Source: Verrucomicrobiota bacterium
Lineage (GTDB): Bacteria; Verrucomicrobiota; Verrucomicrobiia; Limisphaerales; CANJSG01
Direction: 5' to 3'
NCBI GenBank assembly: GCA_038209745.1
Contig: JBBQXJ010000130.1
Coordinates: 1-5,846, forward strand
Length of the DNA stretch: 5,846 nt
Made by a program: the position numbers. Shown piece by piece: positions 1 to 5,846 of this stretch. How positions within the stretch are numbered: position 1 is the first letter of the stretch; every line of letters begins with the position of its first letter.

Positions 1-3000
1 GGCACGACCCAGGTCTCAACGCGCACACCTTTGGGCCAGCGCACTTCGGTGAGGGTGCCCGTGCTGGGCTGGAAGTTTCGGAGCGGGTCTTCGGCGTAAA
101 CGCGGACCTGAATGGAATGGCCTTTGGGCTGCAGGGGTTGCTCGGGCCAGAAGCCCAGATCGCCGGCCGCCAAACGAACCATCCATTCGACGAGGTCCAC
201 GCCGAGCACCTCTTCCGTCACGCCGTGCTCGACTTGGAGCCGAGTGTTCACTTCGAGGAAATAGAACCGACCGCTGTCCGCGTCGTAGACGAACTCCACC
301 GTGCCGGCGGAGCGATACTGGACGCGTTCGCCGAGCAGGCGGGCAAAGTCGAGCAGCTGTTGGCGGACTTCGGGCGCAAGGCTCGGTGCGGGCGTTTCCT
401 CGACGACCTTCTGGTTGCGGCGTTGGAGCGAGCAGTCGCGTTCGCCCAGGGCCAGCACGCGGCCGTCGCCGTCGCCGAAGAGCTGGACCTCGATGTGGCG
501 GGCGTGGCGGACGAACTTCTCCACGTAGAGGCCCCCGTTCTTGAAGTTCGCCTGGCTGAGACGGGCGACGGAATCGAAGTGCTCGCGCAGCTCCGCAGCG
601 TCGTTGCAGACGCGCATCCCGATGCCGCCGCCGCCGGCGGTGCTCTTGAGCATGACGGGGAAGCCGACCTTTCCGGCTTCGGCCACCGCGATGTCCGCAT
701 CCGCCAACAAGCCGGTGCCGGGCAACAACGGCACGCCACATTCGATGGCCAGTTCGCGGGCGCGATGCTTCAGGCCGAAGCTCTCCATCTGCTCCGGCGT
801 AGGACCGATGAAGCGGAGACCGGCGGCTTCGCAGGCGCGCGCGAAGTCGGCATTCTCGCTGAGGAATCCATAGCCCGGGTGGATCGCTTCGGCACCAGTC
901 CGCTTCGCGACGGCGAGGATCTTGTCGGCGTCGAGGTAGCTTTCCTTGGGCGAGGCGGGACCAATCTCGATGGCTTCCGTCGCCATCTCCACGTGGCGCG
1001 ATGCGACATCGGCCTCAGAGAAAACGGCGACGGATTCCCAGCCCAACCGGTCCAGCGTCCGAATGATGCGGCAGGCGATGGCGCCGCGGTTGGCGATGAG
1101 AACTTTCATCGGTTCATTCCCAGATCAACACTCGGACCGGAGTGGGACTGTAGGCGTTGCAGGGATTGTTGAGCTGGGGGCAGTTTGAGATCAGGCAGAC
1201 GACGTCCATCTCGGCGCGCATCTCGACGTATTTGCCGGCCTCGGAAATGCCGTCCTCGAAGGTCAGCCGACCGTCGGGCGTGACCGGGACGTTCATGAAG
1301 AAGTTGATGTTGCTGGTGAGATCGCGCTTCGAGTAGCCGGCACCGAAGTCGGCGATCTGCTTGAGGAAGGTATCTCGGCAATTGTGCATCGACCGCTTCT
1401 CGATGGCGTAGCGCACCATGTTGCTCTCCGCCGCACAGGCGCCCCCCAGAGTGTCGTGGCGGCCGCAGGTGTCGGCCACGATGGTCAGCATCGGGCGGCC
1501 TTCGGTGGAGCGGAGAACGGTGCCGGTAGTGAGGTAGATGTTGGCCTGGGCGCGGATGGTGTCGGTGGCGCTGTAGCGTTCCTCGGGATTGGCCGCGCAG
1601 TAGAAGAGCGTGTCAACGGCCTGGTTGCCTTCGAGATCGACGATACGAAAGACCTGTTCGGCCTTGATCCCGTGCATCCATCCGTCGCCGGCAGGGATGA
1701 TATGATCGTAGATCGCCTTTTCGGGATCGAGCGCGCTGGTGGTCAGGGAAGTAGTGGACATGGCTCAGAGGAAGTAGCGTTCCGTGTTGATAAACCCCCG
1801 CTCGTTCTCGGGTCGGAACTTGCGGACGAGGTCGTCAGGTTCCGGCGGTGGCGAGCTCCAGACGACGAGGTGGACGGGCTTGGGATCGTAGGGACCTGGG
1901 GGTGCCAGCGGATGCACACACGTGTTCAAAACGACCAGCGTGTTCATTTCCGCGCGGAGATCGACGTAGGCGCCGGGCTTCGCGTGGGCCGGGTCGAAGA
2001 CCATCGCGCCGGCGTCCCGCACGACGACCTTGCTGAAGAAATTCGCATTGGGCACGAGGTCGCGCGCGCCGAGTCCGTATTTGCCGAGCTCGACGAGGAA
2101 GTTGTCCCGGCCATTGCGATGAAACTTGTTCCCCACCTGCTGGAAGGTTGCTTCGCCGAAATTCTCCCGGACGATCTCCGCCGTGGAACAGCCACAGATC
2201 GTGTCGTGCCAGCCGCTGGTGTCTTCGGTGACCGAAACGAGGATGCGGCCCATGTCGGAGTAGAGCGCGCGGCCCTTGGTCAGAAAGGCGACGTGCTGGG
2301 CCTTGAGCGTGTCGGCCATGTTGTAGCGCTCGACCAGCAGCTCGAAGTTGAAAAAGAGAGCGGAAACGTTCGCGCCACCGTGGGGATCGATCAGGCGCAA
2401 CGTGGTGCCGCGTTTGAGGACATGGGACCAGTTTGAGCCGCCGAGAACGTCTTCGCGGAAACGGATCTTGTCACCGGGCAGGTCGGGTGTCGGGCTGAAG
2501 GAATCGCTCATAGCTCATGAAAATCGAGTTCAGGCTTCGTGCAGCGGCGGCAGCACTTCGGCGTTCAACTGGAGCTGGCCATGGCGAACACCCTTCAGCG
2601 TGATCATCTCGTCGGCGATCTGCCGGAGGGTTCGTGCCGGGCCCTGGAGAAGGACCACTTGGAGGCTGTGTTGGTGCTCCAAGTGGACTAGCTGGATCGT
2701 GATGATCTCCTTCAGATAGCGATGCTGGACGTCGGTCAGCTTGTTCTGGAGGCCGCGCTTCTGGTGGTCGTAGATCAGGCTTAGAATGCCCATCATGATC
2801 GCGTCGTCGCTCCGGCCGGCATGCTGAACAAGCTGCTCTCGGACCAGCGAAGCGACACATTGGGAACGGTTCGCGAACCCACGTTCCGCCGCCATCTGGT
2901 CCAAGCCCTCCGCGACTTCCTGAGGGATCGAAACGCTGAACCGGACCAGCTCGTTTGTATCTTTGACGGTTGCCATGGATGTTACGACACGCAAGATATG

Positions 3001-5846
3001 TAACACACTCTTCCATGAGAAAGCAATGCTAGGGAAAGCCTGTCAGTCAACGGGAAGACGATTTCAGTTCGTGAAATGCAAGCTAGGCTCCGTTGCAGAA
3101 ATCCTAATTCTGGACTCCAAACGGGGAAGGTCACTTTTGCCCATCCTCGCATTTCTCCCGACTCAGTTTGGCGAGGTCACGGCAGGAAACAAACTTCCGA
3201 CTTGAGCTGGTCGGTGGTTGAAACCCGCTCCCGTTGATTCGCTGTCGCCGGGTGCGGGCTAATGCTTTTTCGGCGAATGTTGCCGACACTGGTCCCTAGA
3301 ATGACGACTGACGCGACCGAGGACGGTAAAGCTGACGGTCCTGTTCCGGATTTAGGATTGGCACCATAGGCTCCAGTGATAGCCATTAGATAAGGGGGTC
3401 GAAATCTACCGGCTCCATGTCGAGGGAGTGCAGGGGCCGACAACGGCGCTGCACGAGCATACGGGATTCGAGCAAATCAGCATGTTCAGCGGCTCCCAGA
3501 TGGATGAAAACGCGCGAGCCTATGGGGGCTCAGTCATCATGAATCCGCCGGGAACCACCCACAGCATCTAAAGCGAAGTCCGGCTGCATCTTGCTCGCAA
3601 TCTTCGGGAAGCCCGCGAAGTTCCTGAGAGACCAAAGCTGATACCCATGAGTCAACCCGCAACCTACGTTCTCCTCGCCGTAAACGGCACCCTGATGCGC
3701 GGCCTGGAACTGAACCCAAACCTGCTCGCGGTCAACGCGACCTTCGTCCGCGAGACGTTGACCGAGCCGGTATATCGGCTGTGGTCTATCAATGACCGAC
3801 ATCCTGCTATGGTCCGCGTCGGAGAGGGCGGTATTGGTGTGGGGGTCGAGGTCTGGTCGGTGCCGGCTGCGGGCGTCGCGAACGTCCTCATACAAGAGCC
3901 TCCGGGATTGAGCATCGGCAAAGTGAAACTGGCGGATGGTTCGGTGGTCCTCGGCGTCTTGGGCGAACCGATTCTATGCGAAGGACAAAAGGAGATTACA
4001 AAGTTCGGAGGGTGGCGCGCCTATGCCGCGTCTTTAGAATAGTTCCCTCACAAGCGAGCGAGGTCTCAAAAATGGAAGACTCTTTTAACCAACCTCCACA
4101 ACACCCTCGAACAGGGCAACGCCCATGCGTCCGAGGAGCTGTTGCCGCTCGTCTACGAGGAATTTCGCCGCATGACACACAAAAAATGTCGAACGAACCG
4201 GCGGGCCAAACGCTCCAGCCCACGGCCTTGGTCCACGAGGCGTGGCTCCGATTGCTCCCTCTTGACGACGCCTTGGAATCAAGACAGGCCGAGCAGGTCA
4301 AGCTGCGTTAGTTCGTCGGATTGACAATCAAGGAGGCTGCCGAAGTCCTCGGCATCTCTAAATCCACCGCCAAACGCTGTTGAGCCTACGCCAAAGCATG
4401 GTTGTTTGAAGAAATCAGCCGGTAGCCTGTCAATTTGCGGGTGAAAAGCAGCCATATGTAGCCGTCGAGGATACCTATGGCCCGGTGCTCAAAGGTTGCG
4501 TCCGGAAAACCGACCGAAACAAGCGGCCAGACGGGATGCGGGCCACAAACCCGCAGCCCTGCAATCGAAAACCGCTCTCAGGAATGACTAACCTCGATTG
4601 GATGATGTTCCTTACCAATGTTTTCCGTTTCTTTCGAGATTTTGGAAAACAAACCACCGTGTAAAATATAGGGCCATTTTAGGGCCACACATATTTCGCT
4701 TCTTTTCGCAAATTGCTGAGCGTTTTCGCGAAAAAAACCGAAAAAATGGTGGAGGCGTCGGGAGTTGAATCGAGTCGGGCAGTTTCGTGAATTTGCGCGA
4801 CGAGAACTAAGCCGGACTCATGCAGAGGAAGGGAGGATGAGCTGGTAGGGGCCGGCCCTGGCGGAGAGGGCGGCAACTGCATCGCAGCTGGATCCATGCT
4901 CTACAAAGTGTTGGAGGAGTGTGCGCCACCACCGGCGACCCTTCGTGGTGGCGACGGCCAGTTTGAGGGTGGGCTTGCCACCAGTGTGGCTGAAGACGGC
5001 GGCGCAAGCGAAAAGCCGCCAGCGCGGGGTGGCTAACTCGGCACGGACGGGTTGGCCAAGGCGGCGTTGGAGCCCGACGCAGAGGTTGTAGGCGCAGATG
5101 GCCGGGTGACAGGCGGCCTCGGTCGCCCAGAACGAGCGGCAGCAAAGTCCCTTCAAACCAAACTGCGCCCCGAGCTCCTTGATCCGGTTCTCGATGTCCG
5201 CCCGGCCGTTGTAGCGGCGCCAGACCTCGAGCGGGCCGACGGTGGGCGTCCAGGCCGTGTCATCATGGCGGCAGAGCGTGCGCACCGGCGCGCTCAGGGC
5301 GGCAGTCATGATGTAGTGCAGGCTCCGGGCTTCCAGTTCGGCGATCATCCCGCGGGTGCAGAAGCCGCTGTCGGCGCGCACCAGCGAGACCCGCACGCTC
5401 TCCGACAAACGGGCGAGGGTGTCGCCGAGGAAGGCGGGCGCGCCGCCGACGCAGGCGGTGTTGCCCGTGCGCGACCAGCGGCACCTCGGCCAGGGCCGCC
5501 ACGATGGGCCGGTGGCACGGGTTTGAGGCCCTTGCGGGTGTAGCCCGCGCGCACGCCCTCCTGCTGGCCGTCCTCGTGGACCAGGGAAAACGAGTCCAGA
5601 TCCAGCGTGCAGCCCTCGGTCCGTTCCGGCAGCTCGCGCATCGCCCAGGCGTGCAACCCGCTCAGAGCCTCGGCGGCGCTCCGCCCACAGCGGGCGAAGA
5701 ACCGGGAGAGGGTCGATTGGCTGGGGATCGCCTCGATGCCCAGCACCTCGGCCACGGCCGGATCGTGCGCCAGGTGCGCCACCCGCGAGAGCTTGTCCGC
5801 GCCGCACAGGATGCCCCCGATGAAACCGAGGGCCGTGTCGCACGGA

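Follow-up and report, generated by a model that had tools for sequence, protein, structure and literature searches.

A NikR-family regulator that is probably no canonical nickel sensor heads a guanidine catabolic operon in a Verrucomicrobiota bacterium

Results

Organization of the locus

The window analysed here, that is, the whole 5,846-nucleotide stretch of contig C130, harbors on its minus strand a gene for a NikR-family regulator of 148 aa with RHH_1 and NikR_C domains (2530-2976), followed by cgdA/UAAP1 (1765-2511) and cgdB/UAAP2 (1114-1761), which encode the DUF1989 subunits of carboxyguanidine deiminase (both PF09347), and by a guanidine-type carboxylase gene (3-1109), represented by its N-terminal 369 aa with the biotin carboxylase domain of the urea_carbox type (TIGR02712 positions 3-370). 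The intergenic gaps are 18, 3 and 4 nt, in that order. A predicted palindromic operator of 28 bp, read from the DNA and not assigned to either strand, lies at 2979-3006, and a stand-alone AH_C protein of 131 aa (PF21986, E 1.1e-39) is encoded on the plus strand at 3647-4042; no promoter was identified within the window. CgdA reached 328 bits on TIGR03425 (cut-off 205.95) and CgdB 337.6 bits on TIGR03424 (cut-off 284.7), and these scores, both above the curated cut-offs, identify the pair as the deiminase subunits of the guanidine carboxylase pathway.

The carboxylase gene runs off the window edge and its remainder, covering TIGR02712 positions 334-1201, is found on contig C129, where it is followed downstream by genes for an NMT1-type binding protein, a permease and an ATPase. 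Positions C130:1-116 are exactly identical to C129:6329-6444, and in three other public runs there are contigs that agree with C129 as far as position 6444 and from there continue with the letters of window positions 117-146; since these contigs bridge C129 into the window, the gene is continuous in nature. The gene order on the minus strand given in a preliminary description of this DNA (nikR, UAAP1, UAAP2, carboxylase) was thus recovered by domain searches, and the overlap that it had proposed for the carboxylase by the exact identity together with the contigs of the three runs.

The regulator retains the NikR fold with an incomplete nickel site

The regulator scored 124.7 bits on NCBIfam NF003381 (cut-off 105) and matched PF01402 (E 6.3e-06) and PF08753 (E 1.1e-25), displaying the fold of the NikR family. 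Further, it aligned ungapped across ~126 residues to the PDB structures 2bj1 (E 3.5e-29) and 1q5v (E 3.5e-20), and its start codon, the ATG at 2976, is backed by the N-termini of homologues. These matches uphold its earlier designation as a NikR-family head gene of the operon, and it is the only NikR_C gene found in this genome, whose completeness is 92%.

According to PMC7055735, the high-affinity square-planar nickel site of NikR is formed by His87, His89 and Cys95 together with His76 from the adjoining chain, in E. coli numbering. In the alignment to 1q5v and 2bj1, the window regulator displays His at the position of H76, Leu at H87, His at H89 and Ser at C95, so that two of the four canonical ligands are kept and the high-affinity site is incomplete; the protein ends in an LPPLH tail.

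The loss extends to its relatives. In a phylum census of 401 genomes, in which a NikR gene was considered linked when located within 7 kb of cgdA, Cys95 was present in none of the 34 linked genes, and all four ligands occurred in 0/34 linked genes vs 93/107 unlinked ones, although these relatives are not independent and the census tallies thus exaggerate how many independent events there were. Cys95 was likewise missing from all proteins of a wider set of 54 linked regulators, in which H76 was found in 22, H87 in 41 and H89 in 23; H76 was replaced by Arg in 30/54, and H89 by Gln, Leu or Met in 30/54. Among the best 150 cluster representatives worldwide, all 87 that bear the Cys display the H-H-H-C combination, and dozens of different residue combinations occur at the four ligand positions in the 63 that lack it, a variety which indicates that the constraint on these positions is relaxed.

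The linked proteins constitute a single clade: a branch with an SH-aLRT of 98 has them all on the same side. Their C-domain displays conserved clade-specific residues, namely E81 (45/54), E91 (52/54), Q102 (54/54) and P134 (54/54). In the subclade of the window regulator, three histidines are invariant in a 27-sequence alignment (E. coli H62, H76 and H89, corresponding to H71, H85 and H98 in window numbering), and most members carry the tail histidine, which is present in 39/54 linked proteins; a rebuilt metal site made of histidines only is conceivable for the window regulator. Another subclade has H76, H87, H89 and Tyr95 and could likewise still bind a metal. With all these substitutions considered, the window regulator is, in our assessment, probably not a canonical nickel sensor.

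Linkage to the carboxyguanidine deiminase genes

For 27 of 38 NikR relatives from reference genomes, the next genes were cgdA, cgdB and that of the carboxylase, and 2 more lay 3-5 kb away from these. Viewed from the deiminase side, the distance from cgdA to a NikR_C gene was at most 7 kb in 34 of the 41 cgdA-bearing genomes of the phylum census, and of 27 such genomes checked, 24 had no NikR_C gene other than the linked regulator. This regulator was also found in 10/80 metagenome loci, a sample made up of the 80 loci most similar to the query rather than a random draw. Many loci also contain glutamine-synthetase-like and creatininase genes, and some members of the clade (L010, L030, L035 and G171) have no cgdAB nearby.

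The operon encodes a guanidine-type pathway

Ungapped fragment-to-profile mapping places Asp residues of the window operon's carboxylase at positions 701 and 956 of the TIGR02712 profile, the signature that separates guanidine from urea carboxylases according to PMC11410670. Asp701 was present in 56/56 cgdA-linked carboxylases examined, 27 of them under a NikR-like regulator. The operon had formerly been described as a second route from urea, a reading at odds with the guanidine-type residues of the carboxylase and with the identity of CgdAB as a carboxyguanidine deiminase. Furthermore, no arginase-family gene was found in the genome, which argues that it has no nickel guanidinase of the GdmH type and therefore no nickel enzyme for the operon to spare.

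A full-length allophanate hydrolase (amidase plus AH_C) was not found in this 92% complete genome, where the best amidase matches were GatA and a generic amidase below cut-off; this agrees with an earlier report of only a 131-aa C-terminal piece, which consists of AH_C alone. AH_C is also encoded as a stand-alone small ORF in loci L011 and L012, and the divergently transcribed protein at 3647-4042 is possibly an accessory of the pathway.

A conserved palindrome precedes the regulator gene

A perfect core TGTTAC-N14-GTAACA is found at 2980-3005 and ends 3 nt ahead of the regulator ATG (2976). With 7-mer arms the site spans 2979-3006, 2-3 nt upstream of that ATG, and reads GTGTTAC-N14-GTAACAT on the coding strand, with 1 mismatch in 14, at the outermost base; it fits the inverted repeat of 27-28 bp, with the consensus GTGTTAC-N13/14-GTAACAC, given for this branch of the NikR family (PMC545781). 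The perfect core is unique in the 4.58 Mb genome (0.29 expected from base composition), so that both the DNA itself and the genome scan support the previous claim of a single perfect NikR-type operator at this place. A relaxed pattern (up to one mismatch per 7-mer arm, spacer 12-16) gave 5 matches vs 18.9 expected, that is, no enrichment, and the case for the operator thus rests on the perfect site and on its conservation in relatives.

Nearly all loci headed by the regulator display a 28-bp palindrome 0-10 nt ahead of the start codon, and where the regulator is embedded inside the operon, sites are located at the operon head and ahead of cgdA or the carboxylase gene. In loci with a site found, the β-strand R-F-S-x-S pairs with the half-site GTG[T/C]TAC (13/13), R-[IV]-S-x-[ST] with GTATTAC (23/25), and R-[IV]-T-x-S with an E. 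coli-like GTATGA..TCATAC. As the DNA-reading β-strand co-varies with the half-site, predicted binding of the operator by the regulator is well supported, and the conservation of the site together with this co-variation makes autoregulation of the operon very likely. On these sequence comparisons, we consider it highly probable that the protein is a dedicated operator-binding regulator of this operon.

Riboswitches and urease genes

The Guanidine-I riboswitch was found in 0/22 loci with a NikR-like regulator vs 6/24 loci without one; the other 18/24 loci have neither, and regulator and riboswitch are alternatives but not the only options. Three NikR-like loci retain a Guanidine-II riboswitch ahead of the carboxylase gene, which puts the regulator at the place that Guanidine-I has in riboswitch-type operons. 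In those operons Guanidine-I and Guanidine-II act as two guanidine sensors in series (see also PMC12186494), hence duplicate guanidine sensing is normal for this operon. Comparison of the window with Rfam yielded no match up to an E-value of 1, and a search of the whole genome turned up neither a Guanidine-I nor a Guanidine-II riboswitch. As Guanidine-II already senses guanidine in the three loci that carry it, the protein could add another signal, such as nitrogen status or a metal, instead of duplicating this one.

The genome carries ureD, ureAB, ureC, ureF and ureG on contig C15, where urease genes had been placed before. No perfect core is present on this contig, the sole one of the genome being that which fronts the regulator's own operon, and no NikR-type palindrome was found within ~1 kb upstream of the HupE/UreJ nickel permease gene; such an operator therefore precedes neither nickel uptake nor nickel enzyme genes in this genome. 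The urease alpha gene is absent in 10/27 genomes of the phylum with a linked regulator, so the link to urease is not general. Urease genes are found at a distance of 4-5 kb from the locus in some genomes, and hupE/ureJ is next to it once, and a loose association with nickel stays alive through these neighbours.

Discussion

The window regulator resembles canonical NikR proteins (E. coli 1q5v/2hzv, P. horikoshii 2bj1, H. pylori 2ca9) in its two-domain RHH plus NikR_C build, in a palindromic operator with two half-sites of 6-7 bp located ~14 bp apart, and in the position of its gene next to the target operon. It differs from them in Leu87 and Ser95, which leave the nickel site incomplete, in a clade-specific LPP[LI]H tail with conserved E81, E91, Q102 and P104, and in a target that is a guanidine catabolic operon instead of nickel uptake. 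Its operator consensus is identical to the delta-proteobacterial NikR signal GTGTTAC-[N13/14]-GTAACAC described by Rodionov et al. (2004, PMC545781); however, that study treats the delta-proteobacterial regulators as genuine nickel sensors whose targets are nikMQO transporters, while the window regulator has lost the sensor site and no nickel gene of its genome has such an operator. The operon also resembles those under Guanidine-I/II riboswitches in combining an ABC importer, CgdAB and an Asp-type carboxylase, with control at the head of the importer/cgdAB genes (PMC12186494); it differs in having a protein and a DNA operator in place of an RNA aptamer, guanidine being a candidate ligand of the protein. 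Finally, the mum locus of Acinetobacter baumannii (PMC5050338) couples genes of the urea carboxylase type to metal homeostasis, in a different metal context (according to the abstract, manganese and zinc limitation by calprotectin) and with no link to NikR. We found no paper on a NikR-like regulator of a guanidine operon of this kind.

The locus had been proposed to form a nickel-sparing switch. Of this proposal, the NikR-family head gene and its operator stand, but nickel sensing does not fit Leu87 and Ser95 in the window regulator, nor the lack of Cys95 in the 34 and 54 linked sequences. A true nickel sensor would repress the nickel-free carboxylase route as Ni-NikR and release it when nickel and urease fail. 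The clear homology above the NCBIfam NikR cut-off, the published type of operator and the predicted NikR repression of a nickel-independent Fe-only hydrogenase, a precedent for such control (both PMC545781), the urease of this genome, and the few relatives whose locus lies near urease or hupE/ureJ are all consistent with it. Nevertheless, half of the ligands are missing here and Cys95 in every linked homologue, residues at the old ligand positions are freely variable within the clade, the carboxylase belongs to the guanidine type in a genome with no candidate nickel guanidinase, 10 of 27 genomes lack urease, the HupE/UreJ permease has no NikR-type site, and a guanidine riboswitch lies inside the same operon in three relatives; we regard a nickel-sparing switch as unlikely. 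Even less likely is the sensing of a metal (nickel, cobalt, zinc or other) through a rebuilt His-rich site made of H62, H76, H89, H92/H94 and the tail His, which could link the operon with the supply of metal, e.g. for the DUF1989 enzymes. The invariant H71, H85 and H98, the tail His of 39/54 proteins, the H-H-H-Tyr subclade and the metal-linked urea carboxylase operon of A. baumannii (PMC5050338) point that way, yet no constellation of His, Cys or acidic residues is conserved clade-wide at the former nickel site despite the same operon and operator architecture, Arg replacing H76 and Gln, Leu or Met replacing H89 in 30/54 proteins each.

Somewhat less improbable, though still doubtful, is a sensor of nitrogen status or of another metabolite, or else a ligand-independent autoregulator of the basal level, with the specificity for guanidine coming from elsewhere. 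An ACT-like C-domain, the pairing of operators with Guanidine-II in three loci, which fits two different inputs, the glutamine-synthetase-like and creatininase genes of many loci, and the clade members that have no cgdAB nearby would all agree with this, but serial guanidine sensors are normal in riboswitch-type operons, no other recognizable regulator is present in the window's operon, and the conserved E81, E91, Q102 and P134 argue for a conserved function of the C-domain.

The explanation that we favor, with some confidence, is a local repressor of guanidine catabolism that descends from NikR, is blind to nickel and autoregulated, and has guanidine as its leading candidate effector; that the effector itself is guanidine or a close relative we propose tentatively. 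Such a NikR descendant, having lost the high-affinity nickel site, would act as an RHH repressor of a guanidine-assimilation operon comprising its own gene, CgdA, CgdB, the guanidine carboxylase and the NMT1-type ABC importer. By comparison, the two RHH dimers of the tetramer are predicted to recognize the pair of GTGTTAC half-sites, separated by 14 bp, directly before the start codon of the regulator gene, and the bound repressor may block the promoter or the early transcribed region. The ACT-like C-domain would no longer sense nickel through the His3Cys site and would answer another ligand; if this is guanidine or a close compound of the pathway, it would free the operon when substrate is present, the job that the Guanidine-I riboswitch does at the same operon position in other bacteria. 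In the account of the review PMC12186494, riboswitches are the sole known receptors for guanidine other than transporters and enzymes. Taken together, our results favor a dedicated switch for guanidine use over a nickel switch as the role of the regulator, which may possibly be a protein sensor of guanidine.

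Organization of the operon and its contig junction

Four tightly packed genes, separated by intergenic gaps of 18, 3 and 4 nt, occupy the minus strand of the window: a NikR-family regulator of 148 aa (2530-2976) with RHH_1 and NikR_C domains, which clears the NCBIfam NF003381 cut-off of 105 with 124.7 bits; UAAP1/CgdA (1765-2511) and UAAP2/CgdB (1114-1761), the DUF1989 subunits of carboxyguanidine deiminase; and a urea_carbox-type biotin carboxylase whose N-terminal 369 residues are encoded at 3-1109 and which extends beyond the window. The remainder of the carboxylase (TIGR02712 positions 334-1201) was located on a second contig of the same genome, C129, where the next genes encode a binding protein of the NMT1 type, a permease and an ATPase, so that the gene order of the preliminary description (nikR, UAAP1, UAAP2, carboxylase, NMT1-type importer) was recovered. 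The overlap of positions 1-116 with C129 is exact, and the join is real, since contigs from three other public sediment runs span it, matching C129 to base 6444 and continuing with the letters of window positions 117-146. The final 140 bases of C129 (6445-6584) diverge from the window and display, in other runs, a depth two to three times that of the carboxylase gene; this end probably represents repeated sequence at which the assembly stopped.

No convincing ORF and no Pfam or Rfam match was found in the ~640 bp between the operator and the gene encoding the allophanate-hydrolase C-terminal domain (AH_C) (3007-3646). The right flank of the operon appears to have decayed or been rearranged: an ECF sigma factor (weak Sigma70_ECF match) is broken into pieces in two frames at 3976-4400 (+), and a DDE transposase (DDE_Tnp_1_4 / DDE_Tnp_1), likewise split between two frames, occupies 4818-5846 (-) and extends beyond the window.

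The carboxylase operon is assigned to guanidine

Guanidine carboxylases have been told from urea carboxylases by Asp at TIGR02712 positions 956 and 701 (Palatinszky et al., PMC11410670, Methods), and the window carboxylase has Asp at both when its fragments are mapped to the profile without gaps. Furthermore, Asp701 was present in all 56 readable cgdA-linked carboxylases, 27 of them under a NikR-like regulator, and CgdAB is described as the carboxyguanidine deiminase of the guanidine carboxylase pathway (PMC12186494). On these diagnostic residues, we assign the operon to guanidine and not to urea.

As for the last step of the pathway, a stand-alone AH_C protein of 131 aa is encoded divergently from the operon (3647-4042, +), and two distant relatives likewise have AH_C as a small ORF of its own (L011 and L012, ~11377-11760, -). 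No full allophanate hydrolase was found in the genome, the best amidase matches being GatA and a generic amidase; GatA, the best amidase candidate, was considered for this role and rejected. The last step may thus be organised differently in this genome.

With regard to urease, the cluster previously described on contig C15 is present. Urease genes are neighbours of the locus in some relatives: three census genomes have urease alpha 4-5 kb from the regulator, in one locus (L077, 2304-4278) ureD and a hupE/ureJ nickel permease both end beside the NikR-like gene, and a 5_ureB_sRNA Rfam match was found in L011 (580-872).

A conserved operator precedes the regulator

Directly upstream of the regulator ATG (2976) lies the palindrome TGTTAC-N14-GTAACA (2980-3005; 2979-3006 with 7-mer arms), which, as had been reported, is the sole perfect copy in the 4.58-Mb assembly (0.29 expected); a relaxed pattern was found 5 times against 18.9 expected, displaying no enrichment. 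This operator matches the NikR signal derived for delta-proteobacteria, GTGTTAC-[N13/14]-GTAACAC (PMC545781, nickel section, Table 4). In 38 NikR relatives fetched from reference genomes, cgdA, cgdB and the carboxylase directly follow the NikR-like gene in 27, with the operon 3-5 kb off in 2 more, and a 28-bp inverted repeat stands 0-10 nt before the regulator start in nearly every locus where the regulator heads the operon. When the regulator lies inside a longer operon, sites mark the head of the operon and also precede cgdA or the carboxylase.

Considering only loci where a site was found, the half-site co-varies with the beta-strand of the regulator: R-F-S-x-S pairs with GTG[T/C]TAC (13/13), R-[IV]-S-x-[ST] with GTATTAC (23/25), and R-[IV]-T-x-S with the E. 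coli-like GTATGA..TCATAC. Direct recognition of the site by the regulator would predict such co-variation, which, together with the conserved placement of the site, argues that the operator is real.

Arrangements departing from the common one were also observed. In eight genomes of the phylum (L079-L085 among them), the NikR-like gene and a longer operon are divergently oriented; in L081 (2295-7954), that operon carries genes for an NMT1 binding protein, permease and ATPase and for a creatininase-family hydrolase and a glutamine-synthetase-like protein, ahead of cgdA. One metagenome contig (L244) bears four class-B operators (GTATTAC-N14-GTAATAC) at 288, 5948, 8665 and 8855, two of them just upstream of a Guanidine-II riboswitch (8993-9043) preceding the carboxylase, an arrangement that implies protein and RNA control in series.

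Regarding promoters, a simple sigma-70 scan of positions 2400-3700 returned 0 sites, and no GG-N10-GC (sigma-54-type) element was seen by eye at the window operator. Sigma-54-like elements were noted in two relatives, GGCAC-N5-TTGCT adjoining the operator in L013 (~400-460) and TGGCAT-N5-GTGCT overlapping an operator arm in L006 (~3400-3470), but they are not systematic.

The canonical nickel site is incomplete in the operon-linked regulators

Nickel in NikR is bound by three residues of one chain, His87, His89 and Cys95, together with His76 from the adjacent chain (E. coli numbering; PMC7055735). Aligned without gaps to the structures from E. coli and P. horikoshii, the window protein, whose fold is settled from its sequence, has Leu at 87 and Ser at 95, with His76 and His89 kept. 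When 54 cgdAB-linked proteins were set against 6 canonical ones retrieved in the same search, in which all four ligands were invariant (6/6 each), Cys95 was found in none of the linked proteins (Thr in 19, Ser and Ile in 12 each, Tyr in 7, and others), His76 in 22 (Arg in 30), His87 in 41 and His89 in 23. Conversely, the linked clade displays conserved residues of its own, namely Glu81, Glu91, Gln102, Pro104, Leu108 and a C-terminal LPP[LI]H tail. Within the window's own subclade, His62, His76 and His89 are invariant, and a rebuilt histidine site is conceivable there. The E. coli Glu30 was also considered as a DISCRIMINATING residue and rejected, as linked and canonical proteins of this branch alike carry Gln at this position. 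From its residues, the regulator is judged not to be a canonical nickel sensor.

So that groups were not picked by trait, 401 genomes of the phylum were surveyed in a census, which yielded 141 NikR_C genes in 136 genomes and cgdA above the cut-off in 41. None of the 34 NikR_C genes located <7 kb from cgdA on the same contig had Cys95 or all four ligands, as opposed to 93 of the remaining 107 with the complete set. The 14 exceptions comprised one second copy with His89 replaced by Tyr, three linked-type proteins (one across a contig break, one orphan and another second copy), nine proteins from one genus that belong to a very divergent type with low scores, and one odd weak match. This low-scoring type, the third NikR_C type observed (nine genomes from a single genus of the phylum, L197-L200 and L209-L213; 22-35 bits), has none of the four ligands, showing Asp, Arg, Ala/Leu/Thr and Ser at these positions (plus Asn at 76 in L197), and falls outside the cgdAB-linked clade. 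The regulator is the sole NikR_C gene of the genome studied here, and the linked regulator is the sole one in 24 of the 27 genomes checked.

Of 179 C-domains placed in a tree, those of all 63 linked proteins, together with six more Cys-less ones, were set apart by a branch with SH-aLRT 98, a modest test given by a quick IQ-TREE search on 76 columns. Furthermore, when 1.84 billion cluster representatives were searched with a profile, 954 NikR-family matches at E up to 1e-10 were obtained. Among the best 150 of these matches, Cys95 was present in 87, all with H-H-H-C (87/87), and the 63 Cys-less proteins showed dozens of residue combinations at the four positions, with a Pro-Pro or Pro-Gln tail motif in 45; being so freely variable, the old ligand positions are no longer under selection as ligands. 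Cys-less clade members without cgdAB (L010, L030, L035) gave no clue to a ligand from their neighbours (a two-component system, a MOSC-FAD-2Fe2S reductase and others). In two methanotroph MAGs, L030 (1228-3114, -) and L035 (2841-4613, -), a MOSC-FAD/NAD-2Fe2S reductase is convergent with the Cys-less clade member, and cgdAB is absent from the available DNA.

The regulator and the guanidine riboswitches

In operons of the riboswitch type, Guanidine-I precedes the importer and cgdAB, and Guanidine-II precedes the carboxylase (PMC12186494). The NikR-like gene stands directly upstream in 10 of 80 metagenome loci retrieved with a cgdA profile, a non-random draw of those most similar to the query. 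Rfam scans detected Guanidine-I, in each case together with Guanidine-II, in 6 of the 24 loci that lack the regulator, versus none of 22 with it; Guanidine-II is kept before the carboxylase in 3 of the 22, in one of them just after two perfect operators, and 18 of the 24 loci without the regulator have no riboswitch. Eleven further scanned loci fall outside both counts, eight with the regulator 4-6 kb upstream and one (genome G267) with it just downstream of the carboxylase. Two Verrucomicrobiota operons without the regulator (L086 and L087) showed no riboswitch, so that the replacement of protein by riboswitch is seen only in the wider metagenome sample and not within this phylum. No Rfam match at E up to 1 was found in the window, nor any Guanidine-I or -II element in its own genome. 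According to these counts, the regulator and its operator stand where Guanidine-I stands elsewhere, in demonstrably guanidine-responsive operons.

Discussion

The preliminary description proposed that Ni-NikR represses a urea/guanidine carboxylase operon beside a nickel urease as a nickel-sparing switch. The observations in that description are confirmed at every point that could be checked. The regulator, operator and operon of the proposal hold, but not the sensed signal, in view of Leu87 and Ser95, nor the pathway, which Asp701 and Asp956 assign to guanidine. A precedent for such nickel-sparing logic exists (PMC545781); nevertheless, the reading is undercut on several sides. No arginase-family gene was found in the genome, hence it has no candidate nickel-dependent guanidinase and no nickel enzyme to spare for guanidine; urease alpha is missing in 10 of the 27 genomes of the phylum with a linked regulator; and no NikR-type site was found within ~1 kb upstream of the HupE/UreJ nickel permease of this genome. 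The best-supported model is instead that a nickel-blind NikR descendant acts as an autoregulated local repressor of the guanidine carboxylase operon, as predicted from residues, gene order and operator.

Concerning the effector, the main argument for guanidine is that the regulator takes the position of Guanidine-I, and we hold this candidate tentatively, at somewhat short of an even chance. Loci combining the regulator with Guanidine-II could equally be read as integrating two different signals. A metal of any kind as effector is unlikely, and the rest of the likelihood falls to another metabolite or to none. In the mechanism we envisage, the inter-subunit nickel pocket would have been rebuilt into a binding site for the guanidinium cation, formed with Glu81, Glu91, Gln102 and the LPPLH tail, a metal sensor thus becoming a small-molecule sensor with its DNA-reading head unchanged, and, in Verrucomicrobiota and several further phyla, the clade would have taken over from the Guanidine-I riboswitch the leading position in guanidine carboxylase operons. 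That the clade represents the first protein-based guanidine sensor is accordingly offered as a possibility, slightly less probable than its converse.

Searches of the literature on NikR with guanidine or urea carboxylase, the guanidine set judged mostly by title, found no paper linking them among those listed, and no paper with NikR appeared among the matches listed for DUF1989, urea amidolyase or allophanate. Likewise, titles for the most part, and the passages of one late-2025 paper, on regulators of guanidine carboxylase gave no protein sensor of guanidine. In passages of a 2025 review, riboswitches are the sole receptors known for guanidine aside from transporters and enzymes, and the question is raised whether guanidine-binding transcription factors exist (PMC12186494).

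The clade described here offers a concrete, testable candidate for a guanidine-binding transcription factor, being a small protein with a defined 28-bp operator and cultured hosts, for a compound now regarded as a widespread nitrogen source and stressor. Its members pass NF003381 and are named 'nickel-responsive regulator NikR' by annotation pipelines, so that nickel regulons inferred from annotation would be wrong for these genomes. If true, the proposal would show how a metalloregulator is re-tooled, its DNA-binding code being kept while the sensor site dissolves.
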